Shown piece after piece: positions 14,658 through 57,500 of a DNA stretch of 64,000 nucleotides (position 1 is the first letter of the stretch; every line of letters begins with the position of its first letter). Source of the stretch: Microbotryum violaceum. Lineage: Eukaryota. The translations under genes were made by a program, and so were the position numbers. The notes under the pieces are model-generated. The model did not search any database, had not been told where the DNA came from, and saw only the letters and a program-made list of their open reading frames with translations. The DNA lies in contig CDLV01000014.1 of NCBI GenBank assembly GCA_001244265.2, forward strand, positions 744,001 through 808,000, given 5' to 3'.

Positions 14658-17600
14658 TGTTAGAAGTGGGGTCTGAGAGCCTAACTCATTGCTATTAGTC
14701 TTGGTTAATACTTTATTCTGCGCGCGCGCCTATCTTTGTCTTTGCGTCTTTTTTCCTTCTGGGTTCCTTCTCCACGCTATTCTCATCATCTCACTCGTGT
14801 ATCTCGGAGCTGAGTCGTGGAGTACCTCTTAGTCCTTGTTGCAACAGGTTATGAGCTCAACGGGCGAATCCGACTTCCCCAACAGGTCGGGCAATCGCTT
14901 GTATCTCAAGGACACACAAGGGTACAAGAGCTGGTCACAACGTGCGTTTATCAATCTTCGAGCCGACAAAGTATGGGATGTCGTCAATCAATCCATCGAC
15001 TCCCTTGTCGCGGACTATCGGTCCACGCTCGTTATCTCACATGCAACTGCGTCCGTCGCGCCAGTTGAACCAGCCTCCTCCGGCTTTAGCGGGCTTGGGG
15101 GGGGGCTCTGGTTCTGCGCGCGCACTCGGACGCCTCGCCCAGGCTCACCAGCGTTCAAGTTGCGGACAAGGTCGCGGAATATCGCGAACGGGCCATCCGC
15201 CGCAACGATTTGGCATGCAAGTACATCGCCAATTCGATCTCTGAGGAACAGATGTCTCACTTGATTCATCTTACCTCGGCGTACGAGATGTGGGACACCC
15301 TCCGTGGTCTCCACTCTCACGGTCGCCCGAGTCGCACTATGGACCTCCTCAACACTCTAGCGCAACCTTACTCTGGGGATATTCCTTTTAAGGAATTCGT
15401 CAACAAGGTCAAGATCGCCATGTCCGATTTTCAGAACCTCGGAGCTCCGCTTCCGCATTGGCTGTTTGCAGGCATGCTCGTTCGGTCGCTCCCAGCCCAG
15501 TATGACTCGATCGTTGGGAACCTTGCCTCCGACATCGACATCCACATGGATTGGAACACGTTCTATCCGAAACTCCTGATGAACGTCGAAATGGCTGATT
15601 CCCGAAACAAACAAAAGGAATCGTTATCCGCTCAGATCGTTGACGATACTAGCCTCGTCGCCCGTATTTCCACCACGGCGCAAAAGGACTACTCCAAGTC
15701 GTATTGTTCGCGCTGCAAAGCACTGGGACACGAGCGTGGTTGGCGTCTCTGTCCAAGCAGGAACAAGGATGCGAGCGCTCCCGCTTCCTCGGACTCAAAT
15801 TCGAACGTAGCTGCCATTGGTGTAGATGAATCTGCATTGATGACCTACACTTTCCCCTATTTGCGAACGATGCCACGTTTTCCATGGATTATTGACTCGG
15901 GTGCTAAGGTCCATTGTGTTGAAGACAAGTCGGTCCTATCGGACGTTGTCTCTGAGCCTCTCAAAATTTCTGTCGCCGATCAATCTCAAATCGAATCTCC
16001 CGGTCATGGCTCAGTGACGTTTTTTACCTCATATGGCGCTCGTATCACCATTAAGAGGGTCTACTACATGCCCGGTGCTCAATGCGGTTTTATCTCCATC
16101 AACCGTCTGTTGGAATCGATGACGTATGCTGTTGGTCCCCAAAGCAATCTCATTTTCAGCATCCGCGGCAAGTCGATTCTGCGCTCGCTTCCTGGTCGGG
16201 GGTTTGTCATGGATGCAGCTCCTGTTCAGCCTATCATGTCATCCTCACCGCCTTCAATGGTCGGAGCCAATCGTCTCACTGGAACCTGTACGTTGATGGA
16301 AGCACATCGGAAGTTGGGCCATCAATCTTTTGCGGCGATCGTTTTGGCCGTCAAATCCGGGGCTATCACTGGCATCACTCTGAAGGACGAAAAGGTTACT
16401 CCTTGCTTCTCGTGCATCCAGGCCAAGTCAAAGCGATCACCCTTCTCCAACAAGAGTACCGAAGCGCCTCATGCACTCTACCGCGTCTTCATCGATCTTG
16501 GGTTTGTCGAACATCCCAATCACCATGGCGATACTATCTATCTCGCTATTGTGGATCAGTATTTAACGGCTAAATGGACGATCGTGCTAAAGGACAAGAG
16601 GGCTGAGACGATTATCGAAGCATGGTCGAAATTTCAAGCCGAGTCCGAGCGTCAAACGGGTCAGATCGGACAATGGTCGTGAATTCAACAACTCATTGTT
16701 CCGGGCTCTTCTTGAAAAGCAGGGCATCATTGTGGAATTCACGGCCCCCTATACTCCGGAGCAAAATGGTCAAGTAGAGCGACTCAATGGATCTCTCATG
16801 GGTCTCGTTCGATCAATGCTCCTCGACTCCGGTCTTCCCATGCGATTCTGGTCAGATGCTCTGGCCGTCGCGACATTTGTTCTCAATCGTCGACCACATC
16901 CTCGTATTCAAGGAAAAACGGCAATCGAAGTTCTTCTCGGCAAGAAGCCTAGTCTTGCTCATCTTCAGTCATTCGGATCTACGGCGTTTGTCCACGTTCC
17001 CAAGGAGCGTCGCTCCAAGCTTGCACCTCGCTCCATTCAGGGAGTTTTCATTGGGTACTCCGGTGAATACAACTACTGTGTCTGGGTCCAATCGTCAAAA
17101 CAGGTCTACGTTTCGCGTCACGTCACATTCCTTGAGACTCCTTCCGTCGTCACTTCGTCTCAAGATCGTGCGGACGCTTCTGATCCCGTTCATCATTCTC
17201 AACCTCCTCATCCTCCTCATCCTCCGCCAGATGTGTTGCCGTCTACACCAACTTCACCTGTTGTGGATCCAACTTTGCCGGATCCACAGCCTCCTCCGGT
17301 GGTTCCAATTGGAGTTGGTCAACAGGGGGGTACCTTGCAGTCATTCCTCAAGAACCACTCGACGGTGAGGCGGAAGTCGCTCTCGCTCCTCGTGAAGGTT
17401 ACGCCATCGTTTGCACTGGTCCAAATCCTGGCCAATTCGAGAATGTTGATCCTTCCAACATCCTTCCTGCTGGTTCTCGTCGTCGACCTCAACCTCCGGA
17501 AAATATACTTCCCATCATTTCGGCTATCATGGTCGATGTCTTGGATACTCCACCCATGTTCCACGACAAGCTTTCCTACGATGCCTACTGTGCTGCCATG

Positions 17601-19369
17601 TTCACCGAAGAAGACATCGAGATACACAAGACATTCGAGGAAGCCATGAAGTCACCCTATCGCAACCATTGGAGTGCGGCAATGGTCTCAGAACTTCTAC
17701 AATTTGATCATCATGGAGTCTTTCAGGAAGTCAAGTGGCACAAAGGAATTCGGGTACTCGGCACGATCTGGGTCTACAGTATCAAGCGCGATGCAAACGG
17801 CAAAATCATTCGTTTCAAAGCTCGTCTCGTTGCTCAAGGATTTGCTCAACGCCCAGGCATCGACTACCATGACACCTACGCTCCTGTCGCTCGTTCTTCG
17901 ACGATTTTGTTCTTGATTGCTCTGGCTGCTGCTCAGGGCCTGTATCTCAAACAGTTCGATTTTGACTGCGCCTTTCTCAACGGCAAGATGACCGAGGATG
18001 TCTATGTTCGATACCCAAAAGGATGGAATCGTCCTCAATCCCCTGGCAAGTGCCTCAAGCTCGTGGGTTCCATGTATGGCACCAAACAGGCGCCCCGTGA
18101 ATGGTATTGAGCCGTCAACAATCTCATGGTGTCTCGAGGCTACATGAGGGCAACTGCTGATGCTTGCCTCTACATCAAACATTCGGGCACTTCGTTTGCT
18201 ATCATCACTCTCTATGTTGACAACGGTCTCATCGCGTCCAACAATCAGTCCTTCTTGGACTCCGAGCTCGGATCGCTTCACAAGGCCTTCCAGCTCAAGC
18301 GTCTCGGACCCGTCTCCTACTTCCTGGGCTTCGAAATTCATCGCACCAAAGATTACATCCTCGTTCATCAAAGCAAGTATGTCCGCACTATGCTCGAGAA
18401 GTTCGATTTCGCTTCTCCATCCAAGCGCCGTGCAATCACGCCCATGGATGATTGCCCCTCGCTTTGAATCGATGCTACTCCGTTTGCCGATGTGTCATTG
18501 TACCAATTGGCTGTGGGTTCCCTGCAGTACGCGTCCACTCGATGTCGACCCAATATTGTGATTGCTGTTTGTGCCCTTGCTCAAAAGAACTCCTGTCCAA
18601 CTGTTGACGATTGGGCTGCGGTCAAGCGTATATTTCGCTACCTCAACAGCACCATCAATTTGGGAATTCTTTATCGAAACAGTTCCACAACTCGATTGAT
18701 GGTCTATTCCGATGCCTCGTTTGTGGATGACCCGGAATCTCGCAGATCGGTGGGAGCCTATGCATCAATGCTCGCTGGCGGCGTTATCTCCTGGCAGTCG
18801 AAGCAACAATCTATGATTGCTACATCCACTACCAAAGCCGAAATCCTCTCTGCATCCTCAGCCACTCGTGAAGCAATCTGGCTCCGTCGTTTGGCTGGTG
18901 ATGTCGGCATTCCACAAGCACAGCCTACTATCATTCAAGAGGACAACGCCGCATGCATCCAGATCACCAAGGATCCGGTCGATCACATGCGAACCAAGCA
19001 CTTTGACATTGCTCATTTGTTCGTTCGAGAACGGGTTGCTTCTGGTGAGGTCAAACTTGAATCCTGCCCTACCCACGTCAATGCCGCGGATATTATGACG
19101 AAGCCTTTGGGATTTCAACGCTTTGATCAACTTCGTGCGCTACTTGGAATGGTCTCGTTAGTCTCTTTGACCGGTGGGAGTGTTAGAAGTGGGGTCTGAG
19201 AGCCTAACTCATTGCTATTAGTCTTGGTTAATACTTTATTCTGCGCGCGCGCCTATCTTTGTCTTTGCGTCTTTTTTCCTTCTGGGTTCCTTCTCCACGC
19301 TATTCTCATCATCTCACTCGTGTATCTCGGAGCTGAGTTGTGGAGTACCTCTTAGTCCTTGTTGCAACA
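14658..19369 (+). mobile_element. Full-length Ty1/copia LTR retrotransposon, inactivated by stops and frameshifts
   Basis: 189-bp TG...CA LTRs at 14658-14846 and 19181-19369 (one mismatch seen); 5-bp TSD AACTT; PBS GGTTATGAGC; purine-rich GGTGGGAG before the 3' LTR. Domain order: gag zinc knuckle (CSRCKALGHERGWRLC), protease IIDSGA, integrase (H..LGH, CFSC, SDNGREF, PEQNGQVER), RT (KARLVAQG, YVDN), RNase H (ADIMTKPL). Confidence 0.97.
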
Positions 19370-19636: not shown

Positions 19637-21017
19637 TCAAACGAACAATTCGATACCGAGAGCTTCACGGCGGCTGACAGATTGAGAATCGTAGTAAGGC
19701 TTCTCCCGAGCGAGACCACGCAATCCCCTTCATGGGTGTCGTCATAGTCGTACGTCGCTGTGAAAACAGTGGTGAAGAAAACATTCAGAACATCAATCAG
19801 ATGATGAGGAGACCGGTTGCGAACGACTCACCAGTGTGAACAGTCGGACCGTTGGCCCAGATGGCGACATTGTTCTTCGACCAGCGGTAACGAACCTGAA
19901 GATCGTGATTCTGGTTGTAGAGTTTGAACAGGTAGGCGAGTGTCTCTTCCGACTCTTCCTTGGTCAACTCTACGATGCGCTTCGTGAAGCCTTGGTTGAT
20001 GAAGAGACCCTTCCAGCCTGTGATTGGATTGGTGCGCACAACGGGGTGGATCGCACGAAGGTCGTTGTCGACGTTCGCGGGGCTGCCCCTGACCTCGGAG
20101 TAGACCTTAGTGCCTTGTCTGTAGAGAACGGAGACAGCTTAGAAATGAAAGGTTTGCAGAAGAAAGTCAGAGATGGTTGGTACTTACGCGGCAGCAACCT
20201 GGTGGAAGCCGTTGCCTTCATGCTCGGTGGTCAAGCCCTCAACAAACTTCTTGTAAGCCGGGCTGAGACGGTCGTACACCTCGTAGGCGGAGGCCCAGAG
20301 GGTGTTGCCCCCGGTCTCGGGGAGAGTCTTTATCTTGAGGATTGCGAAATCGGAAGGAATAGGCTCGAAGGTGATGCTGTTCGATCCAGATGTCAGTCGG
20401 GGAAAAGGCGCGGTGAAATAGCGAGCTGGGAGCTCGGACTCACTCGCTGTGCCAGCCACGCGATGCCAAGCGGCCGAGCGCGGTCCTGTACTTGTGGTAT
20501 GCCTGACGCTGCGAGTAAATGGTTGAGACGTCATTTGGTAGCTCGGCCGAGCGCTCGGTGGGATGGATGTGGAGGCCCGAAGCCAAGGGCCGGCCGCTGA
20601 GAGCACCGAGCTGGTTGCCGAGCTGTCCAGGAACGGAAGAGGGCGTGTGGGTTAACATTGGCTGAAGTCGAACCGAGCATCCAACGTCAACTGTAGTTAC
20701 CGACGGACCTCTTTCTGCTCATGAATTGTGAGCGACTGCTTCTTAAAGAACGCCACCCCGCGTTGAGAGATGACGATTGCGAGGTCGCGGATGAGCTCGT
20801 CGGCGTTAGGGGCTTTCAAGAGTTTGGACAGCTGAAGGTCGGGGTACTGGCGTCCGATGACGGGAGTGACATCAGAGCTCTTGTAACCGTCGAGCAGACC
20901 TTTGGCCACCAAAGGCTTGTAGGAACCGCAAAGGCCGATCGAACCGAGCGCACCCTTGTTCGGGGTGGTGGCGGGAGTAAGGGTGGATTGGGCACTGGTG
21001 GATTGGGTGGAAGGCAT
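19637..21017 (-). pseudogene. TauD/JLP1-like alpha-ketoglutarate-dependent sulfonate dioxygenase, probably decaying (frameshift near C-terminus)
   Basis: TPVIG, QRGVAFFK.Q, GWHS|DITFE, GGNTLWASAYEVYD, HPVVRTNP.TGWK.LF.N. At ~19702-19708 the frame slips just before GEKPYYD. Confidence 0.75.
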
Positions 21018-21807
21018 GGCCGGCTGGTGGCGGGTTGAGGTAAGAGATAGATATCGAGTATGACGAAGAAGAGAAAAGATAACTTTCATGCACTGAGAGT
21101 TTTGACCCCGAGGGGACAAGCCCTTGCTTGCTAAGCTCACTTAACAAGGGTAGGGTGGGGGAGCCTGATTGCGCAAGTCATCCCTAGGCCGGGATGTTGC
21201 GTGATCCCGAACAGACTCAGCTTGATCGCGCAAACCGGCCGGCGGGAAGCGGGACTACGCAAGCTGACTCATGGTATAAGAGATAGCCCGTCAAGAATTG
21301 CAGCAGAGTACCTATTGTGCCCCATTTCAGGTACCTAGGTTTTTGGCTTTGCGAATCCGATATTCCCCAACTCAGCCGAAGCTTCCCCGCGCAGCTTATC
21401 GTGCCGATCACGCAAGAGCGCGCGCCACAAGGCCCAGCGATGGCGCTAGGGGTCGCGTGATGTGGCACGCGCGCGCTTGCACAGTGCCGAGACACATCAA
21501 GATGTAATCGGGCTCCTCAGTAGCTATTGCCCTATAACAGCTCTTTTTAACCTAGGTAGATGGAGGTATTGTGTGATCACTAAGCGAAAAATAACTGAGC
21601 AGTCCCTGAAGGGATCACCCAATCCAAACTCATTTGCGTTGATGAGGGGCTTTGCCAAAGACGTGACCGTCACCTCGGTGGTTTTTGGCAGCACGAGCAT
21701 ATCACCTTCAAATATCCTGTAGAGATGCACCCAGTTCTGAGACGTCCTTGTCCCCTCCTCTTCACCACCCACAAGTACCATAAAATGTCTCCGCCCACTC
21801 AGCCCTA

Positions 21808-21845
21808 CGTGACCAACGTGACCAACGTGACCAACGTGACCAACC
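21808..21845 (+). repeat. 9-bp tandem repeat (CGTGACCAA)x4 encoding VTN repeats
   Basis: Seen directly. Confidence 0.9.
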
Positions 21846-22093
21846 TGTCCGCTCTTCCCGGCTCGGCCGAGATGAACGCCTACTCGAAAAGTGACGACCT
21901 CAGCAGCTTGGAGAGCGATACCCGGCATGGAAAGGCGAGCACGGTGCTCTCTTCCGATGACGGTTTACTCGAGTGATTCACTCACACATGTGGAGTCCTG
22001 GCCATTCGGATGGGCAGGGGCTAATACACACATTTCGATCACCAGTTTGTACAAGTTTGTACAAGCCTATAATTGGAAAACAAAGGAAAGTTT

Positions 22094-22164
22094 GGCTGAA
22101 CTGAGAATTGAACTCAGGTCCACTCTATTAATCAGATTTGCTCTGACCGCTGAGCTACTCAACC
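22094..22164 (-). ncRNA. tRNA-like cloverleaf (3' LTR copy)
   Basis: Same as 22399-22469, with one substitution in the anticodon stem. Confidence 0.8.
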
Positions 22165-22398
22165 AGTAGGAATAGATGAATATGACGGTGCACCCAAGTC
22201 ACACCGGCGGTGGTTCTACCACACATTGGGAGCCATGGCGGGCGGACTGGTGCACGGTCACATTGACTTCTACTGTCCCCTTCAATTGATTAAACAACTG
22301 AAGCCAACCAACTTAATCAATTGTTCAACTCGTGACCGATCTTAGTTTGCCTTGCGGCAGTGACAGACGCTACCAAATTGGAAAACAAAGGAAAGTTT

Positions 22399-22469
22399 GG
22401 CTGAACTGAGAATTGAACTCAGGTCCACTCTATTAATCAGAGTTGCTCTGACCGCTGAGCTACTCAACC
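22399..22469 (-). ncRNA. tRNA-like cloverleaf with Pol III A/B boxes and non-canonical GATTAAT loop (5' LTR copy)
   Basis: GGTTGAG TA GCTC AGCGGTCA GAGC A ACTCT GATTAAT AGAGT GGAC CTGAG TTCAATT CTCAG TTCAGCC; all four stems pair (two G-U pairs in the acceptor stem). Confidence 0.85.
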
Positions 22470-23769
22470 AGTGGGAATAGATGAATATGACGGTGCACCC
22501 AAGTCACACCGGCGGTGGTTCTACCACACATTGGGAGCCATGGCGGGCGGACTGGTGCACGGTCACATTGACTTCTACTGTGTGGCTCGCCCGCAAGTTG
22601 AACCTCGACTGCTCGTCGCTTCAATCGGATCCTTCTGGCAGCTCTTGTTCTTGATCGTTCTGGTCGCCATTCCCGACAACCTCGGCCGGTGGGCAAAGTA
22701 TGCGATCACTTCGCTACTTCTCGCATTCCCCTATGCCCACCCCAGTGAGTTGAACAACGATTTCCGCAAAAGCCGAACCATTAGATATATGCGCAGACGC
22801 TGAGCTCCGAAACCTTGCTTCATTCGCGCAGTTCTTGTGTCCCTCAACAGCCGCAACTCGGGCAGTGTGCGCACTCGATCGGTCTCGGCAAGTCTTTACA
22901 ATATGTTTGTGCAAGCTGGCTCCATCGTTGCCTCCAACATCTATCAGAGCAGGGACAAGGTGAGCGAAGGGGAAGGGACCAGACTGCGCGCCCGTCTGAT
23001 TGCGCCTGAGACTGACTTCTGCGCGCTTCACCGGATACCATAGCCGTACTACCGTCACGGAAACCGTGTACTCCTCGGTATCGTATCGTCCAACATTGTG
23101 CTCTTCTTCTTGGTCAAATTCTACTACGTCGCGCGCAACCAACAGCGTGCCAAGAAGTGGGAGGCGCTCACGGTCGACCAACGTCGCACGTACCTGGAGA
23201 CCACCAAGAACGAAGGCAATCGCCGCTTGGATTTCAAGTTTGCCCATTAATGCTCCAGAGGCTGTATTTGGCGAATCTTTACTTTCATAAAACTATTTAG
23301 ACGCAGTATTAGTATTGCGATTGGTCTCAGGACGGTATAATTTATCTGCAGTGGTTTACAGATTCAGTTTGGGTATTAAGTTTAGGTTCTTGTCTGTACA
23401 ATCAGCGGCATTGAGGGGTCTCGCTCCCGAATAGTGTATCGCGGTGGGCTTATGCAACGGTTGTTATCATCTTTGGCTTGATCCTGACTATAGTCGGGTA
23501 CAGCGGCGCGGATGAGAATGCTTCAACGAAGCGCATTAGTACCTGCGCATACCTCGGGCCGTTTTGGGTCGACGTCTTCCATAACCGATCATCCCACAGC
23601 GCGCCAAGTCCCGTCAACCTCTGCCACCCACCTCGGCTCGCTTCTGCTCCGTTCAACTTTGCCCAGCTACGGCCCCAAAACCAACCAACGTCTGTCCGTG
23701 AACTCTTGGATTACGTCTTCCCATCTTTCTTCCTTCACACGTCGAACCCGTCGTATCTGTTGTCTCGCA

Positions 23770-25186
23770 ATGGCCATGGCCAGCTCGGCGTCAGCCAGTT
23801 CGTCGTCCCACATCGAGCTGCCGTTGATCACCGTGCAGCCGACGTTCCCCGAGGTCGTGCACGACATCGGCTCAGATAGCGACGCTTCGGCTGAGGATTG
23901 TTGGATCTCGTGCTATTGGAAGGGCAAGACTTCGGTCCATGGCAAAGTGAGGGTGCTCGAAGCCGAGGGAGGGGGTGCGGTAGAGCTGGAGGCCCGGGAC
24001 GGGGTCACGTGCCGAATGGTCGATGGCAAGGTATGGAGCGAATGCATGATCCAAACGCTCTTCATACGTGACTTGTCTCTCTGACGTGACTCGGATGATT
24101 ACCGTGGCGCAGACTACAACCCTCGAGTGTTCGTGTGAGCAGCTGGCAATACCCCCCACTTTGGTCCACTTCCCGCTTCGCACCGATCGATTGGCCGACT
24201 TCGGACCCGTCAACTCGTTCGACATCGCTCCGGACGGCTCTCGCTACGTCGTAGGCGGAGACAACGGCTTGGTGCGAGTTGTCGAGCTTTCGCCTTCGCA
24301 CTCATCCACGCAAGCGCCGCGGCAGATCGCGCTCAAAGGTCACCTGGCCGATCTCACCGTCGTGCGATTCTTCCCGTCGAGCGAAGTTGTGCTCACCGGA
24401 GCGATGGATATGACCATTCGGATCTATTCGGCTCTAAGCGGGAAAGAGGTTAGGACCCTGACGGGCCACACAAAGTCCGTCTCGGGATTTTTCATTCTCG
24501 GCAAGGGCAGGAGGATCCTCTCGTCGTCGCTCGACGGAACGATCCGATTATGGAACATTGCCGAGGCCAAAGTGGAAAGGACGTGGAGTTTTGACCAACC
24601 CGTGTCTGCTTTCACGGTGTCACAGTTCACCGGATCGACGGCCTTGGCGGAGGACTACCCCGAAATCGAGGAGCTCTACGCCATCGCCGCGCACACGAAC
24701 GGTTCTGCAACGGCGCTTCCCCTCGGCACCGACACCGCTGCTCCCTTGCTACGATTGAGAGCTGGCTCATCGCCCCTGCACTCGATCGCGCTCGATTCCG
24801 ATTCTGGCCGACTTGCTTTGGGATCTCGGAACGGCTGCGTTGCTCTGTTCCAGCTTCCTGCTCTCGATGCAGCCAGCCCAAGACCGGCGCAGGAGACGCT
24901 TGCCCCGCTGTTGACATTATCACGGTCCGATACTGTTGTCCATCGACTCTGCTTCAGCACTACTTCGAATCTGGCACCGACGCAAGATCTTCTTGTCGCT
25001 GGCGCCGACGGACTCCCATTCCGAGTAACCTTACGTCAAGACCCTTCCGATGCCACAAGTACAACGGCATCAATCGTGGATGAGTACTCCGGCTTGAACT
25101 GTGAAGCAGCTACTTCCGCCATGACGTCGAATGGGTGCATCTGGGTTGCTGGCGCCGATGGGATGATTAGGCGATATGAGGGTTAA
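23770..25186 (+). CDS. WD40 protein, proteasome chaperone Rpn14/PAAF1-like (one intron ~24031-24112)
   Basis: N-terminal IT.QP...CWISCY...SVHG; WD repeats LKGHLAD...FFPSSEVVLTGAMDMTIRIYS and LTGHTK...SSSLDGTIRLWN. Confidence 0.8.
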
Positions 25187-25980
25187 GCCGAGACCACGCT
25201 CCAGCCGCGACCCCAACGTGATTGTGCAGGAACCTGCTTCGGCTATTTTCAATTTGTTACCTAGATACCACCCAGTTGAGTTTGTGCGTCCAGCGAGTCC
25301 GGCAACAGCGACCGATCGACTTGAGCTTGAAGCGGCCCGGGCGATGATGTCACGTGCCCGTACGCCCAGTAATTGGAACGCGATTTCGACTCTCCTGACC
25401 ACTCGCGCGAGTCGTAGCGGAATAGTGGTTCGAGTTGCAGCAAGACGAAGGACAACATTGGTGTAGGAATTGTTAAAAAGTCAAGCGGTGAAAACCCAGC
25501 CTTCTGGGGAAAACCGCAAGAGATCGATCTAAACGGAAGAGAGTCCGAACTTCTTGGTGATACACAGGGATGGTGGGCGGGATGACAATTGGGAGCTTTG
25601 CGACCCAAGCTTCTGGATGTCAGACGGCTGCAACTGATGATGGAGCAAGTCCACTGATCGTCTCAGCATACCTTTGCGACAAAGGCAAGACACTGTATAA
25701 AGACAGTTGTGGCGCGGTTGGTGCAAAGGACGGCAAAGGGTCTGCTGAGAGATATGCGATTTAGCTCGTTGCCCAACAAGGACTCGGAGCGAAATGCCCC
25801 CACAAAGAATTTGCAGGGATCCAAGTGCAAAGTACACCGTGCAACACGCTTGGGTGTATCGAAGCATTACCCCGAGCTACTCTAAGCGAGCCACGTCGAG
25901 GGTTTCATACTGAGCTGCTAGCAGCTGTGAACGTCCGGCAAGATGGAACTCTCGATCAGCGACCTCGTCAGCTGGGAGGT

Positions 25981-26310
25981 AGTCTTGGGAGTGAGGAACG
26001 CACCTGTCCCTACAGGTGGTGAACGCAGCCACAGAAGCTGGTAAGGAAACGTCGACAACGCAGTGAGGGCCCGAAAGGGAACGTGCGTTGCGAGTACCGC
26101 CCGTGAGCTCGCCTGTGGGAAGCACAGCTATAGCATCCACTGGGGGAAGCGTCGACAACGCAGTGAAGGCCCAAGGGAACGTGCATTGCGAGTACCGCCC
26201 GTGAGCCCGCTTGTGTGGAAGGCACAGTATAGCATCCACGGGGGAGAGAGGGTCCGTGCGCGCGAGCCTGAATCGGCGCGTCAAATCCTTGCAGCAAAAG
26301 CCGAAAAGAC
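25981..26310 (+). repeat. LTR-like ~330-bp repeat, copy 1, with internal 2 x 100-bp tandem unit
   Basis: 25984-26310 matches 29148-29474; begins AGTCTT after purine-rich GGGAGGT. Confidence 0.8.
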
Positions 26311-26871
26311 CATGGGTTGATACGGTTGAGTGGCTCACTTGAACCGGCGATGTGCAGGAGTAATGAGGATAGGAACCTTGCCGGGTCGAAGAACGCCGCT
26401 TTGATGGCTTGTTGCTTGAGCTGCTGAGAAAGGTTGAGAGTTGAGAAGCTGGGTGATAAACCCTGTTATTCCGCTCATGTGACTTACTCCACGGTTCCTA
26501 CCCCCAACATTCACATCGCTCACAGTTTCGAGTCCGCACGTCTTGACCCCCGAGCTCCAGTTCGAAACGCCCGACTTGAGCGCAGACTCATAGGACGCGT
26601 ACGCGTCTTTGTGGGATAGGGAGCGATCCTTGCATTTGCCACATACAACCAAACGACCCTCGCCGCGAGAGAAGTCGCGGTCGACAGACAGATCGACATG
26701 GCTCCAGTTGTCGCCCCTCTTTCAAAGCAATAGCACCTGCAAAGCGTCGGCGTAGCGAGCTTGCCAGCGATCATTTGCGGAGCCACCTCTCAGCTGAGAG
26801 TAGTAATTTTGCGCTTCTTTGTTCGTGGCAAATTCCGTACACACAAGGTCCTCCTCAGCAGTGGGGAGGTC

Positions 26872-27028
26872 TGTTGGAATCAACGATGATCCCGAAAATG
26901 ATCAACAAAAGAAGAAGAACGGCTGGACCAGGAGTCGAACCTACGTCGCTTCCATTAATCGGAAAAGCTTTGACCACTAAGCTATCCGGCCCCTGATAGC
27001 AGTGCAAGGTCTACTAACACCTTCAACA
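26872..27028 (-). mobile_element. 157-bp LTR (TGTTG...CAACA) containing a tRNA-like gene, preceded by a PPT
   Basis: Minus strand: AAGGGGAAG|TGTTGAAGG ... ATTCCAACA; 5-bp terminal inverted repeat. Confidence 0.75.
26921..26991 (-). ncRNA. tRNA-like cloverleaf with A/B boxes and GATTAAT loop (second family)
   Basis: GGCCGGA TA GCTT AGTGGTCA AAGC T TTTCC GATTAAT GGAAG CGAC GTAGG TTCGACT CCTGG TCCAGCC; canonical B box GGTTCGACTCC. Confidence 0.85.
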
Positions 27029-27277
27029 CTTCCCCTTAGACCTTTGCACTGCTGCCAGGCTATTGCAATGCGTCGACTCTAAGTCCCAATTTGGACTCTG
27101 TGTCAAGCTTCTGCGGCAGCTCCGGCTGCTATGTGCAGCGTCACTGGGAAGATTTTACATGAAGGGTTCTATAATAGATCCTCACACTTCCCCTTAGAAC
27201 CTTGCTTTGGCATCTTGCTCTACAGCATGGTTCGGAGACAGCCGCCACTTTCTCTTGTTAACCGACAGACGCTACCA

Positions 27278-28690
27278 AGTTAAATTTCGGTGCGAGGCGA
27301 TCTTTGGTCCAGGGAGACGAGAACACAAACTTCTGCTTCTGTCAACGGTCGATAGCAGACTCAATGATTGGTGAGGAACCAATCAAGAGGACTCCGCACC
27401 GCCGCTGACGCAGTCCGCACCTCCCTGGCCAAAATGGCTTAAACTACCCAAAAACCCCAAAGACGCTTCTAGCCATTACTGCTCGCGTAGTCCCTTCCAA
27501 CACGCCCCCTGGCGAGGAGCGTCCACCATTCCAAGCATCCGAACGACTCCGACTCGTGCGGTGCGCGCGAGAGTTCCTTGGTGAATCCGTCCGCGACCAT
27601 CTCCTTGGTCCCGATCCATCGGAGCTCGATGATGCCGTTCGAGACAAATGTGATTAATTGTGCCGCGCAGATAGCGAAGAACTCGCCGCATTTGCCTAAA
27701 GTGGTCCGGTTTCGGATCGGCGCAGTGTCTTGACAGTTGGGTGACCGCATAAGAGATATCGGGCCTTGTGCATCCTGAAACCTAGAGGAGCTTACCAACA
27801 ACCTGGCGATAGTTGAGCTTGAGATGAGCAGTACCTCCATCTGAGTGCTGATCGCTGTCGGAGGTTGGGGTTGCCACCGCGGAAGCGTTCGCAAACCCGT
27901 GATTGTTCAGGATGGTCTCGATCTGGTGGCACTGGTCAATGGTCATGATCCCCGATGCGTCGTCGGTGGCAATCTTCATCCCCAGGAATAGCTCGATCTC
28001 GCCTCGCTTGAGCTTGAACTGTTGATCGAACTTGCTGAGGAACCCTTCGAGATCGTCGTCGCCGGCGAGAAGACCGTGGTCGACGTAGATGGCCAAGAGA
28101 GTCGTGCGATCGACGCCCCCGATGTTGCGAACCCTTCAGTAGACCCCAAAGACCTCCTCCATTCGCTTGAAACCGCGATCGACGAGCGCAGCATGCAAGA
28201 CCTTGTTCCACTCACGACCCGACTGCTTGAGACCATACAGGGATTTGCGCAGTCGATGGGTGGAACCGTCCGGCAGCTTGATCCATAGTGGTTCGGTGAG
28301 GTGACCGTGAAGGTATGCGCTGTTGACGTCGAACTGAAGCCGCCGATACCCTTTGACATGAGCTATGACGTTGATCATCCGGATGGACGCGATTCGAGCT
28401 GTCGGTGAGAATGTTTCCCCGTGATGGTTCTGGAGATCCCCCCGTGCGACGATCCTTGCCTTGTACTTGATGATGTCACCTTTGTCATTCCGCTTGCGGA
28501 TGAGGACGACCTTTGTTGGGATTGCTCGAATTCCTGGCGGCGGATCGGTGGCCTCCTTGTCCCATGTGTTCATGCCGTTCAGAATCGAGTACTCAGTCAT
28601 GAGGGAAATGGACCAATCCTCGCGATCCTCGCCGGTCATCGCCTGCTTGTAAGTCGGCTCGTTAGGACCAGGTCGGGATCCATCTTGCTA
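27278..28690 (-). mobile_element. 5'-truncated, degenerate Ty1/copia (RT, RNase H, PPT, LTR 27502-27278)
   Basis: EPTYKQAM...W, KYKARIVARGD, QFDVNSAYLHG, LRKSLYGLKQSGREW, IYVDH, MVADGFTK; PPT AGGGGGCG then TGTTGG at 27502. Confidence 0.9.
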
Positions 28691-28999
28691 AAGCACAGAC
28701 GATTGATTATAGTCGTTTGGTGAGGTGTGAGAGTGCAAGTGAGCGACGAAAGAAGAGAGAGCGGCGCGGGTATATTGCGAAGTTCCCAAAATGTTGCAAT
28801 TGCACCTCCTTTCTTGTGTGATTTGTGTGATTAGTTGATGAAGCACCCCGCGGTCAGCGCTTGGACCAAACCATGCGGCACAAACATGGGGGATTGGGCC
28901 GATTACAATTGGAAATTTGATGACCTCGCTAGAGAGCACGAGCCTCCTCAGTGGAAACTACAGCTTCCAGCGCCACAGGAGTCTGTACCAGACACAAAA

Positions 29000-29147
29000 A
29001 AAGTTAAGATATCTAAAAGTATCTAAGGAAACCCCCGGGGCTTTATCTATCTATCTAAGATATTTGGCACCTAGATAAGATGTCATCTATATCTTACCGA
29101 GATAGGCTAAGATATATATCTAGGTAGACATCTAATGGGGAACCCTG
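29000..29147. mobile_element. Probable hAT-type DNA transposon end
   Basis: Ends GGGGAACCCTG (CAGGGTTCCCC on minus), preceded by dense TATCTA/TAGATA subterminal motifs; other end not found. Confidence 0.5.
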
Positions 29148-29475
29148 CTTGGGAGTGAGGAACGCACCTGTCCCTACAGGTGGTGAACGCAGCCACAGAA
29201 GCTGGTAAGGAAACGTCGACAACGCAGTGAGGGCCCGAAAGGGAACGTGCGTTGCGAGTACCGCCCGTGAGCTCGCCTGTGGGAAGCACAGCTATAGCAT
29301 CCACTGGGGGAAGCGTCGACAACGCAGTGAAGGCCCAAGGGAACGTGCATTGCGAGTACCGCCCGTGAGCCCGCTTGTGTGGAAGGCACAGTATAGCATC
29401 CACGGGGGAGAGAGGGTCCGTGCGCGCGAGCCTGAATCGGCGCGTCAAATCCTTGCAGCAAAAGCCGAAAAGACT
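29148..29475 (+). repeat. LTR-like repeat, copy 2 (first 3 nt missing)
   Basis: 327-bp match to 25984-26310; ends AAGACT, running into TGG. Confidence 0.8.
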
Positions 29476-53685: not shown

Positions 53686-54528
53686 GGCACGTATGGATCA
53701 GATGAGACTCTTCAGTAGCGTAGTGGTGGACGGTCAAGAACACTCGGGATCTCAAGCGATTATGACAGCACGGCAAGAATCTGAATGCCGTCGAGCGCGT
53801 GTAGGACGCGCGCCTCCCCTCACCGCTGCACGCGTTCGCAGGCGTCCGCACTTGTCCGCAGGCTCGAGGGGTTGGGCCTTGGAACAGTTGGGCGCTTGAG
53901 GTGCTTGACCGCGCCGAGCGGCCCGAGCTGCGTGGAGGGAGCGGCCGATCGGTCACTGTCCTCTTGCACCGCTTCCAAGCTCCTGCTCGGTCTTCAGACA
54001 CACCGTTACACCGCTAGGCCTCAGGGGTATCACCAAGTCTCGATCCTCGAGCACCAATTATCACCGAGTCCTTTAATTCAGTCACTTACCGCCCAGCCAG
54101 CCCCTTCGGGACTGTCCCACTGGACTGCACTGTAGCTGCCCGTTCCAGGTCGTGGCACCTCGTGCTCGCAACCGCGGGCACGATCGTTGCCGACTCGCGA
54201 AGGAGTGGCAGCCCCTAGATTAGACCTGTGAGTCAATGCGCCGCCGCCAATCCAGAGCATAGATACAGGTCCCGGTGGCTGCAAGCTCCTTGTGGCCCTT
54301 CCCGCAACCATCTGCACTATCACGTGATGGCGAGGCGAGGCTTAAAGCTGGGAGCTGGGAGCTGGGTGCTGGGTGCTGGAAGCTGGAAGCTCCACCCGGG
54401 AAGTTCGAGTCGCACGTGAAGCTGACTTCAGCTCATGGCATCGTGCTCAGTGATTCGACCAGAGGAGGTCGCGTCCGATAAAGTACGTCCAGTTTCAAGA
54501 CCTCGATAGACTCATTGGGTCGACGGCG

Positions 54529-57500
54529 ATGGACGTCGAGTCGTCGTCACCGGAGTCGGCAACCACGGACGATCTGAGTCGACCTCAGTTGCAGGCCCAG
54601 GCCCGAGCCCCGTCTCGCTCGTCGTTCCCATCATCGGGACCGTTCGGCACCTTACAGCCCACGCCTCTGTGTCATTTGCGTGGTGACGCAATGGTCCAAG
54701 CCGAACCTGTCAGGATTCATGCTCAAAGACCGTCTGGCTCGGCCGAGATGATTACCTCCTCTTCCCCGGGATGCAAATCCGGCTCACCTTCGAGTTATTC
54801 CCCTCCGAGCTCACCGTCGTACCGTCGTTTTGGCTCCGCGCTGCGCCACGCGGTCGAGTCGAGAGCGTTTAATGATCTCTTGGATACATCCTCCATCGGT
54901 CAAACGATCAACTCGCCTCTGATCGGCGTCCTCCCACATACGCCGCTCACACGCATCGAGACTGCGCAGTCGTACGAGGGAGGGGCCGTGCTGTCGAGAC
55001 CAGCCACGGCGCCAGCTGGCGGTCAAGACGACACAACACATGGTGTCGCCTTTGCTTCTTCTTCGTGCTCCGAGGTTCCCCCACAACAAGCCGCAGGGGA
55101 ATCGTCCTCCAGATATTTGCACGACTTCCCCTTACCCGGCGGTAATTCGCTCAAGAGCCGCAAGTGTCGCAACCCAGCTACGCCGAGCGGTTCATCATCC
55201 CCTTCAGGATCCCGAGAATTGAGAGGTCGGTCGCATTCCTCGGCGCAGGCGTCTGCAAGATATGTACCGCTTCTGAGACCGCCGCCTTTGCGACCACATG
55301 CCTCGATGTCGCCCACACCCTCGATGCAGTCGTTGCAGAACCATATGTACACGTATGGCCTGCTCAATGGCACGCTTTCAGATCTCCACTTGGTCGCGTT
55401 TGGTCACCACTATCGCTTGCACCGCATCGTTCTTGCTGGCCAATCTGGATTCTTCACTTCCTTGCTCTCGGGCGGGTTTTCCGAGGAACGACATGGCGCC
55501 GATCGAGGCTCGGACAGCGAGGTCATCGCCGTCGAGATGGATCGACCGCTTAGCCGTGCCGCGTTCGAGTTCGTCCTCGCTCGTCTGTACGGTGGGGGTC
55601 CAGAGCTGGTGCCGCCACCTTGGGCAAAGACTTCAGCCAAGAAGCCTCTGAGTGAGACATGGGAACGCTTGGTCCTCATCGCGACGGGTAGGATGGACAT
55701 CGACCCCCAAACTAGCCTTGATCGTGACTATCTCCTAGACCTCTCGGGTGGTGCAGCCGAAACTGATTCAGAGTGGTCGACCATCATGGCCCCGACGTGC
55801 CAGCCAGCGACACCGACCTTTCTTCTCAGCCTGCTGGCCACTGCGACTTATCTCGAGATACCCGCGCTCCAGTCACTTGCGTTGCATTGGATCCAGAAGA
55901 CGATCACGCCGTGGACTGTGGCTCAGTACCTTGGCTTCGCATTGGGACGAGGACTAGGCAGCGGTTCACTTTCGCCCGAGCTCGACGCTCCTTGTCGTGG
56001 CCTCGAATCAGTCGGAGCGCCCTACAAACTCGATGATACATCGCTATCTCCCATGACTGAAACCGAGTATTCCTCCACGAGGTCTTCACGTGCGTCTTCG
56101 ATCTCGAGCCACCTTCAGGATAAAGAGACCGCGTGTTCCGGTGACGCCGTCTCGATGTTTGTTGGCCCCGAGGGCGAACGTATCGGCGAAGCGTGTGCAT
56201 GCTGGCTTGCGAAATGGGGAGCCGAGACCCTTACGACGGAGGAATGGCTCGCTGCACGGGTCGTCGAAATGGACTCGAAAGCTGGCGCAATCATGGATCG
56301 GGAGGATGTCTTGTCGCTACGGTGCAAGATAGTCGAGCCGTTCTTCTACGACGAGAAACGACCTGCTTGCTTCGAAACCTACCCCGAGCTCGCACCGCCA
56401 AGTTTGGCCATCTGGTCGTCGATCGGTGGCATTGATGCGAGATGGGTGCGAGGCGTCATTTCGAGCGACGCATTCTTCATTGCAAACACCATCAGCAGCG
56501 CGACGACCAAGCTTACGGGCGACTTCGCTCCGGAGGGGCTCGAGTCGGATGGCGAATTCCAACGTTATCTTTTTGCGAAACGTGTGATTGAAATGCGCAG
56601 GGGCGAAAAACTTGACGCGTTAAATCGTTCGAATCGATCGCGTCTTGGCGCCTCGGGCCACGGACGGAACTCGAAGTGGGATGGGTTGGCTGATGGAATT
56701 TCGGAGAGACTCGGTTTGCTCGATCTGCAGCAGTCCGTTGTCGATCACTCATCTTTCAATGAGGATCAGACCTACGCGATGGCGACCACTGGCGACGGCC
56801 CGACCACTGACGCCAAGTGTCCCGGCGAAGGGCCGAGCATTGGTGTCTCCTCTTCATCGCAAGCCGCTGCTTCATCGGCGCGCATAGATCTGAGCTCTGT
56901 CGATGAGCTGGAGTACGCTCTACTCTTCCAAGATGGCATTCATTACTATCACATGGTAAGTGCATGGTCGGAGCTCTAGATTGACCCTCCGAAGCATAGC
57001 TGATGGCTCGTTCCCTCGGCTATTTCGCACAGACCTACCGACAGCTCAACCTGATCTCCGACGACTATTCGATGACGTCACATGTGTTGTTCGCCCCTAT
57101 CGAGGTCGTTCAGCGCGCGCATTGGCAAATTGAGCAGTTCAAGAGTCGTCTGCCACTCGTGCATACGCCGCGCTCGGGGCAAGCGCTTGAGATGGCCGGC
57201 CTGCTATCTTCGTCTCGAGTAGGAGGGGGTGTCCCCGTCGGAAGGATGCCCTTGCCAGGCGAGTTGGTTACTTTGGATGGACTGGTCGACATCGGATTTG
57301 CTACGCCGGTCAATCCTCATCTCGACGTCAACATGCCTGCTTTGGGCTTGCAACCTTTCTACCGCATCCCGATCGATGACACGAGCAGGATCAACGATCG
57401 TGCTCCCCATCCCGATTCGACGCCATCGGCGCTCGGCTTAGGCGCACCATCACCCATCCCGCCTCGCAAACCGAGCTCTCCTCTTTCTTACGGCCCAGAC

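Follow-up and report, generated by a model that had tools for sequence, protein, structure and literature searches.

Structure of the 511-bp element

The window analysed here, a stretch of 64,000 nucleotides from the anther-smut fungus Microbotryum violaceum (contig CDLV01000014.1, positions 744,001 to 808,000), contains a single copy of a 511-bp unit at 22071-22581, a putative terminal-repeat retrotransposon in miniature (TRIM) with a tRNA-like gene inside each of its two long terminal repeats (LTRs). Read on the minus strand, the unit consists of an LTR, a 99-nt core and a second LTR (206 + 99 + 206). Repeat finding and blastn detected the two direct repeats at 22376-22581 (5' LTR) and 22071-22276 (3' LTR), 206 nt each at a spacing of 305 nt, with two mismatches at LTR positions 109 and 140. 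The core (22277-22375, minus strand) opens with TGGTAGCGTCTGTC at 22362-22375, which looks like a PBS (primer-binding site), abutting the 3' edge of the 5' LTR, and closes with the polypurine tract (PPT) GAAGGGG at 22277-22283, adjoining the upstream side of the 3' LTR. Self-matches of the core also detected an internal hairpin on the same strand (22283-22323), with 11-nt arms (CAATTGATTAA and TTAATCAATTG) and a 19-nt loop, and the minimum free energy (MFE) fold of the core was no better than those of its shuffles (z -0.88). An earlier note, made from the letters alone, had described two 206-bp LTRs with two mismatches around a 99-bp core bearing a PBS and the PPT GAAGGGG, and all of this was confirmed by the repeat search and the sequence.

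Two observations suggest that the PBS-like stretch may be a real PBS. The 8-mer TGGTAGCG lies exactly at the LTR edge, a placement with a chance of about 6e-5 when four offsets are allowed, and the 15-mer TTGGTAGCGTCTGTC, comprising the PBS and one preceding T, recurs on the minus strand at 27264-27278 (BLAST E 0.04-0.07).

The LTR borders could also be read from other copies of the family, as loose ends in the contigs described below. Likeness of other copies to the 5' LTR stops at 22579 and 22376, and the loose ends at the 3' LTR lie at 22070/22071 and 22274. The LTR of the family is accordingly about 204 nt long, with edges at 22071/22376 and 22274/22579, and the two extra bases common to both LTRs in the present copy seem to derive from the PPT side, with a chance match in the flank.

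The tRNA-like module of the LTRs

The covariance-model search bore out the cloverleaf that had been proposed for each LTR in the sense of the element. Against a gathering score of 29, the Rfam tRNA model matched the minus strand with 49.9 bits at 22398-22469 in the 5' LTR and with 43.3 bits at 22093-22164 in the 3' LTR, both matches covering model positions 1-71, and ARAGORN called the same genes at 22397-22470 and 22092-22165; the counts of paired positions also agreed with the cloverleaf in the 5' LTR. The two copies differ by one mismatch, in the anticodon stem. The module occupies LTR positions 113-184 and leaves 22 nt before the PBS, so that the dimensions given earlier, 71 nt and 23 nt, are corrected to 72 nt and 22 nt. 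In the 5' LTR, the A box TAGCTCAGCGG is located at 22452-22462 and the B-like box GAGTTCAATTC at 22410-22420. Variants of the family found in contigs retain G-U pairs at 22410 and 22422, and a variant at 22414 results in a more canonical T loop. The MFE folds of the tRNA-like RNAs of the LTRs were better than those of shuffles (z about -2.5).

Throughout the 64-kb window, ARAGORN detected three tRNA-type genes, all on the minus strand and all called 'tRNA-Stop (tta)'. The anticodon loop was GAUUAAU, with G32 and A33, in all three, in place of the canonical 7-nt loop with U33. Because of this loop, the tRNA-like part of the LTR cannot be a normal decoding tRNA.

A dispersed multi-copy family

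Logan contigs of four public runs (X9, X14, X15 and X17) were compared with positions 20500-24500 of the window. In all four runs, pieces of the element exceeded the single-copy flank in depth by a factor of 5 to 28. In X15, the LTR reached a depth of 588, two core pieces 284 and 267, and the flank 21.5 (LTR : core 2.07). The corresponding depths were 139.9, 73.2 and about 10 in X14 (1.91), and 97.2, 48.4 and about 3-4 in X17 (2.01), a run whose patchy low flank depth looks like that of low-coverage DNA. In X9, LTR pieces ranged from 50.2 to 84.2, with 25.4 for the core piece and about 4-7 for the flank (2.0-3.3). Taken as a rough proxy, these values put the number per genome at about 5-14 for cores and about 10-28 for LTRs, contig depth being a poor measure of copy number, and all copy numbers given here are depth ratios only. 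An LTR : core ratio of about 2 fits units of the form LTR-core-LTR; a value of about 1 would be expected of long tandem arrays, and one far above 2 of many solo LTRs.

The junctions within the element were also recovered in the contigs. Pieces covering 22245-22403 in X14 and 22245-22404 in X17 run through the end of one LTR, the PPT, the core, the PBS and the start of the other LTR with no difference from the window. In X15, a high-depth piece (22106-22245) runs from the tRNA-like part into the upstream part of the LTR, which assigns the cloverleaf to the multi-copy LTR. Among the 24 loose ends listed, of 62 in total, clusters were found at 22070/22071, 22274, 22375/22376 and 22579, with flanks that were unlike one another. 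The earlier note had named single-copy status and family members lacking the cloverleaf as findings that would speak against a mobile element; what the contigs contained was a multi-copy, dispersed family whose high-depth pieces span the cloverleaf. Scans of metagenomes with a 24-mer of the LTR-PBS junction gave no match, nor did a degenerate pattern covering both types of tRNA-like sequence.

The insertion site

The site of the 511-bp copy is polymorphic. A contig of X15 (5,777 letters, single-copy depth) joins 22055 to 22580 through 1,695 other letters. In X14, one contig stops at 22055, and in a second one 22580 is preceded by 348 unlike letters. The 511-bp copy is thus absent from at least one close relative. 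The right break of the X15 allele coincides with the LTR edge, and the left break lies 15 nt outside the LTR. With LTRs that are 99% identical and a polymorphic site, the Microbotryum family is recently active.

The target-site duplication (TSD) that had been expected was absent from the 511-bp copy at all the boundaries tried, whether as first drawn or shifted. In the sense of the element, the upstream flank ends in GCCAC (or CACAC), and the downstream flank begins with ATAGG. The lack of a TSD is explained by the X15 allele, because the flanks of the copy are not neighbours there. The copy has probably lost its TSD, either by recombination between two insertions 1.7 kb apart or by capture of a cDNA at a break, accompanied by a deletion. 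In X9, a left and a right loose end agreed in four of five bases (CGCAG and TGCAG), a weak hint of a TSD. A 10-bp tandem duplication, GTTTGTACAA in two copies at 22045-22064, is located outside the 3' LTR where the likeness of X15 stops, and may be a repair footprint.

A third tRNA-like gene and neighbouring Copia elements

The third tRNA-like gene (26920-26991, minus strand) lies outside the 511-bp copy and matched the Rfam tRNA model over its full length with 38.8 bits. It is a diverged relative of the LTR module: 47 of 72 columns are invariant and the anticodon loop is identical. Seven of the 21 stem pairs have changed on both sides and are still paired, a number reached by none of 500 shuffles, and the cloverleaf pairing was found in 95% of cells versus 27-48% when the partners were slid. 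These comparisons, made between what are effectively two independent sequences, give a hint that the cloverleaf fold itself may have been kept. The MFE fold of the third copy was no better than those of shuffles. The gene may represent either the source unit of the module or an LTR belonging to another, older family of Helenus-like elements. Upstream of it (26992-27059), a hairpin with 16-nt arms was observed together with the 22-nt motif GCAAAGGTCTAAGGGGAAGTGT, which recurs 158 nt upstream at 27184-27205.

Contigs of single-copy depth with about 90% similarity to 22380-22481 alone, and without the rest of the LTR, were also found, at about one locus per genome. The genomes therefore hold stand-alone relatives of the tRNA-like module. 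An origin of such LTRs by insertion of a tRNA-derived unit into a TRIM LTR has been proposed (PMC10886601), and these loci agree with it.

Copia features are located on both sides of the TRIM. At a distance of 2.7 kb, a Ty1/Copia-type element occupies 14658-19369 on the plus strand, with 189-nt TG..CA LTRs of 99% identity and the 5-bp TSD AACTT. Its matches to gag, integrase and RVT_2 fall in several different frames and its coding region seems broken; the PBS is GGTTATGAGCTC and resembles those of the anticodon-loop type for an initiator tRNA. On the other side, a remnant of a Copia reverse transcriptase (RT)/RNase H region runs on the minus strand from 28534 to 27653 and is followed by the PPT-like stretch GGAAGGGAC; about 210 nt further on, the PBS 15-mer occurs for the second time. 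A Copia family sharing the PBS of the TRIM could have its PPT-LTR-PBS junction in the segment 27264-27498, and would then be a candidate for the autonomous partner. Between two identical 327-bp direct repeats (25984-26310 and 29148-29474, 3,164 bp apart) lie the third tRNA-like gene, the Copia remnant and the second PBS 15-mer. About 100 bp are duplicated within each of these repeats; they do not have TG..CA ends, and no duplication flanks them.

Proposed life cycle and alternative explanations

We consider it likely that the 511-bp unit is a copy of a small family of non-autonomous TRIMs of the Helenus type (TRIMp3) in Microbotryum. The earlier description of a non-autonomous LTR element with a tRNA-type module is supported by the anatomy, the Rfam scores and the multi-copy dispersal. 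Several observations weigh against this reading, in addition to the missing TSD and the crude nature of the copy numbers. The LTR ends are not TG..CA and no terminal inverted repeat was found at them. Of the 8-mer TGGTAGCG, two occurrences were counted in the window against 1.08 expected, and 30 of 100 shuffles also reached two. The match of the PBS to an initiator tRNA is presumptive, by likeness to a known motif. Folded alone by MFE, the tRNA-like RNA does not adopt the cloverleaf. Comparison of the TRIM with the Copia element at 14658-19369 and the remnant at 27653-28534 detected no likeness except the PBS 15-mer, so that neither was identified as a partner.

The RNA of the element would start in the 5' LTR. 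The start that we favour, still tentatively, is by RNA polymerase III (Pol III) from the internal A and B boxes, which would read through a run of four T (T4); an alternative start would be by RNA polymerase II (Pol II) from the upstream 112 nt of the same LTR. The RNA would then contain, in this order, the tRNA-like part with the following 22 nt, the PBS, the core, the PPT and the 3' LTR. It would be packaged by proteins of an autonomous Copia element and primed at the PBS by the 3' end of the initiator tRNA-Met. Copying would use the repeated tRNA-like segment as R, and the product would be integrated by the Copia integrase. A Pol III transcript running from LTR to LTR is what we infer.

The read-through step is the part of this scheme on which the T runs bear. 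T runs on the element strand reach at most T4, found within TTTGTTTT at 22382-22385 in the 5' LTR and at 22077-22080 in the 3' LTR, and this run may be a weak Pol III terminator. That no T run is longer than four, as stated in the earlier note, is correct as a fact and fails as a signal: when the 305-nt unique unit was shuffled 20,000 times, T5 was also absent in 68% of cases, and because chance suffices, its lack carries no weight. Read-through is further disfavoured by the position of the T4 run, 13-16 nt past the 3' end of the tRNA-like part in both LTRs, where the terminator of a tRNA gene is expected, and by the third tRNA-like gene, a stand-alone one, which has only T4 runs downstream. 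T4 may thus be enough to terminate Pol III in this fungus.

These points on the T4 runs count in favour of the most serious alternative, an ordinary TRIM driven by Pol II, in which the tRNA-like part would be a passenger or a short Pol III gene ending at T4. The single-copy tRNA-like locus of about 90% similarity, about one per genome, also fits the separate source unit that such an origin would involve. Moreover, the LTRs of Cassandra are described with promoters and terminators in the accessible part of PMC7215508, and the use of Pol III by Helenus is stated to be not validated (PMC10886601). However, the module lies in the sense of the element and only 22 nt from the PBS, a placement comparable to that of the 5S part of fern Cassandra, which is 8 nt away according to the accessible part of PMC7215508. 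The cloverleaf is intact, as are the A and B boxes, and no Pol II promoter has been shown. We regard Pol II transcription as a doubtful but serious possibility.

A further reading concerns the RNA itself. In an independent TRIMp3 lineage, selection would keep the LTR-borne tRNA-like RNA folded and non-decoding, the cloverleaf would act as RNA, and the T4 run would be deliberately leaky. The cloverleaf could set the ends of the template through processing by RNase P and RNase Z, or serve as a signal for packaging or export, and would thus be more than a promoter in the DNA. Two products would result from the leaky T4, a genomic RNA by read-through and a short RNA of tRNA-like form. This proposal arises because the loop is fixed as GAUUAAU and because of the seven two-sided pair changes relative to the gene 4.4 kb away. 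We consider it unlikely.

The possibility that the unit arose by deletion from an autonomous Copia element with the same tRNA-bearing LTRs, in a family that is not obligately short, was suggested by one loose end of X17 at 22371, where a different sequence stands beside the PBS-like stretch, and by the PBS 15-mer near the Copia remnant. Nevertheless, the LTR depth was almost exactly twice the core depth (588/284, 139.9/73.2 and 97.2/48.4), leaving little room for other internal regions, and the LTRs showed no likeness to either Copia element in the window; this origin is improbable. Still less probable is an origin as part of a tandem array, the 305-bp unit with its tRNA-like gene then being satellite-like. 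Such arrays are reported for Cassandra (accessible part of PMC7215508) and for one fish Helenus family (PMC10886601), and the 305-bp spacing is clean, but the LTR : core ratio was about 2.0 in X14, X15 and X17, and the unit stops after 1.67 periods in unique flanks. Finally, a local segmental duplication of an immobile tRNA pseudogene, with which the missing TSD, the non-canonical ends and the single copy in the 64-kb window would agree, is hardly credible: the depths of 5-28 times the flanks in four of four runs, the many unlike flanks and the other sequence at the X15 site refute it, barring contigs from contaminating organisms, and a PBS and a PPT at the two repeat-spacer junctions are unlike a tandem duplication.

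Host context and significance

The surroundings of the element are those of a Microbotryum genome. The GC content of the window is 0.50-0.62 per 2-kb window (mostly 0.54-0.60), compared with 55.4% given for M. lychnidis-dioicae in the accessible part of PMC4469406. An open reading frame (ORF) of 841 residues at 54454-56976 is 94% identical to a protein of Microbotryum saponariae and 77% identical to one of M. intermedium, followed by matches in other Microbotryomycetes. ESM Atlas matches did not help to place the host, those of an MCM protein being spread over all eukaryotes and those of a SUZ protein fitting Ascomycota and Basidiomycota alike. Two differences between strains were also observed in the neighbourhood of the TRIM. 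At 21804-21848, in the gene upstream of the TRIM, four overlapping copies of a 9-bp coding repeat (GTGACCAAC-like) are present, and X14, X15 and X17 are without 27 of these bases, showing that the repeat number is variable among strains. At 24065, near the start of a WD40-repeat ORF (24050-25183), the X14 and X15 contigs are longer than the window by 18 bases.

The presence of a Helenus-type family in Microbotryum would mean that the published host range of Helenus is incomplete. Helenus has so far been a purely computational class, and its known fungal hosts are mostly rust fungi. Rust fungi are obligate parasites and hard to handle in the laboratory, while Microbotryum grows in culture as yeast-like cells. 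Since Microbotryum can be cultured, the Pol III hypothesis is directly testable there. The findings also call for caution in annotation, as 'suppressor tRNA' calls in such genomes are parts of transposons.

Comparison with known systems

Within the window, the natural comparison is with the Copia element at 14658-19369, which is likewise an LTR retrotransposon of this genome with 99% identical LTRs and a PBS read as of the initiator-tRNA type. It differs from the TRIM in being coding, in its TG..CA ends and TSD AACTT, and in a PBS that looks to be of the anticodon-loop type where that of the TRIM looks to be of the 3'-end type. The annotation of M. lychnidis-dioicae lists no short interspersed nuclear elements (SINEs) and gives Copia-like elements as the commonest type of LTR element, and the word TRIM is never used in the accessible part of that source (PMC4469406). 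The 511-bp element resembles tRNA-derived SINEs (SINE2) in its tRNA-derived head, A and B boxes, short length and lack of coding capacity; unlike it, SINEs are without LTR, PBS and PPT and depend on long interspersed nuclear elements (LINEs).

The element shares with Cassandra a Pol III-type gene inside each LTR near the PBS, a PBS putatively of the initiator-tRNA type and a non-coding sequence, as far as Cassandra is described in the accessible part of PMC7215508. In contrast, the module is derived from a tRNA and not from 5S rRNA, the host is a fungus, and the PBS of plant Cassandra, TGGTATCAGAGC, is different. The module of Cassandra is a 5S rRNA-derived sequence with box A and box C, whereas a search with Rfam models in 20000-29000 detected no 5S rRNA match at E up to 1, and only tRNA matches were obtained.

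The closest counterpart is Helenus, described as TRIMs with tRNA-derived sequence in their LTRs and placed with Cassandra and Ajax in the TRIMp3 group (Kojima 2024, Biology 13:119, PMC10886601). With this publication, the statement of the earlier note that no fungal tRNA-based equivalent was known no longer applies. In fungi, 113 Helenus families are reported in Pucciniales, in addition to those in Agaricus, Coprinopsis and Amylostereum, with 5-bp duplications and PBSs matching the 3' end of initiator tRNA, and the likeness of these PBSs to those of Copia led to the proposal of Copia as the mobiliser. The same source gives an A box consensus TRGCY..YGG, a B box GGTTC and lengths of 311-1263 bp, notes that the tRNA-like parts are often called suppressor or mismatched tRNAs by gene finders, and mentions tandem arrays for the one fish family. 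The present element agrees with this description in the tRNA-derived part in sense orientation in each LTR, the PBS-like site, the PPT and the length of 511 bp. Its A box TAGCT..CGG fits the consensus, its tRNA-like part is called a suppressor or non-functional tRNA, and it belongs to a small family in a Copia-rich fungal host. It differs in the B box (AGTTC instead of GGTTC), in the lack of a 5-bp TSD at this copy, in ends that are not TG..CA and in its host genus Microbotryum, the comparison being one of structure.

No Helenus was reported in Microbotryum, Leucosporidium or Rhodotorula (PMC10886601), and no description of a TRIM or Helenus in Microbotryum was found in the literature searched, which was mostly outside subscription journals. 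The screen by Kojima used LTRs from Repbase as seeds, extended by sequence likeness (PMC10886601), and because of this reliance on likeness, an unrelated Helenus family would be missed. The Microbotryum family is probably of independent origin. With its complementarity of PBS and tRNA being putative, the 511-bp element agrees with the structural definition of Helenus in all points except the TSD. What is new is the host record, a Helenus-type family in a genus reported without Helenus, in a class of elements that was already known.

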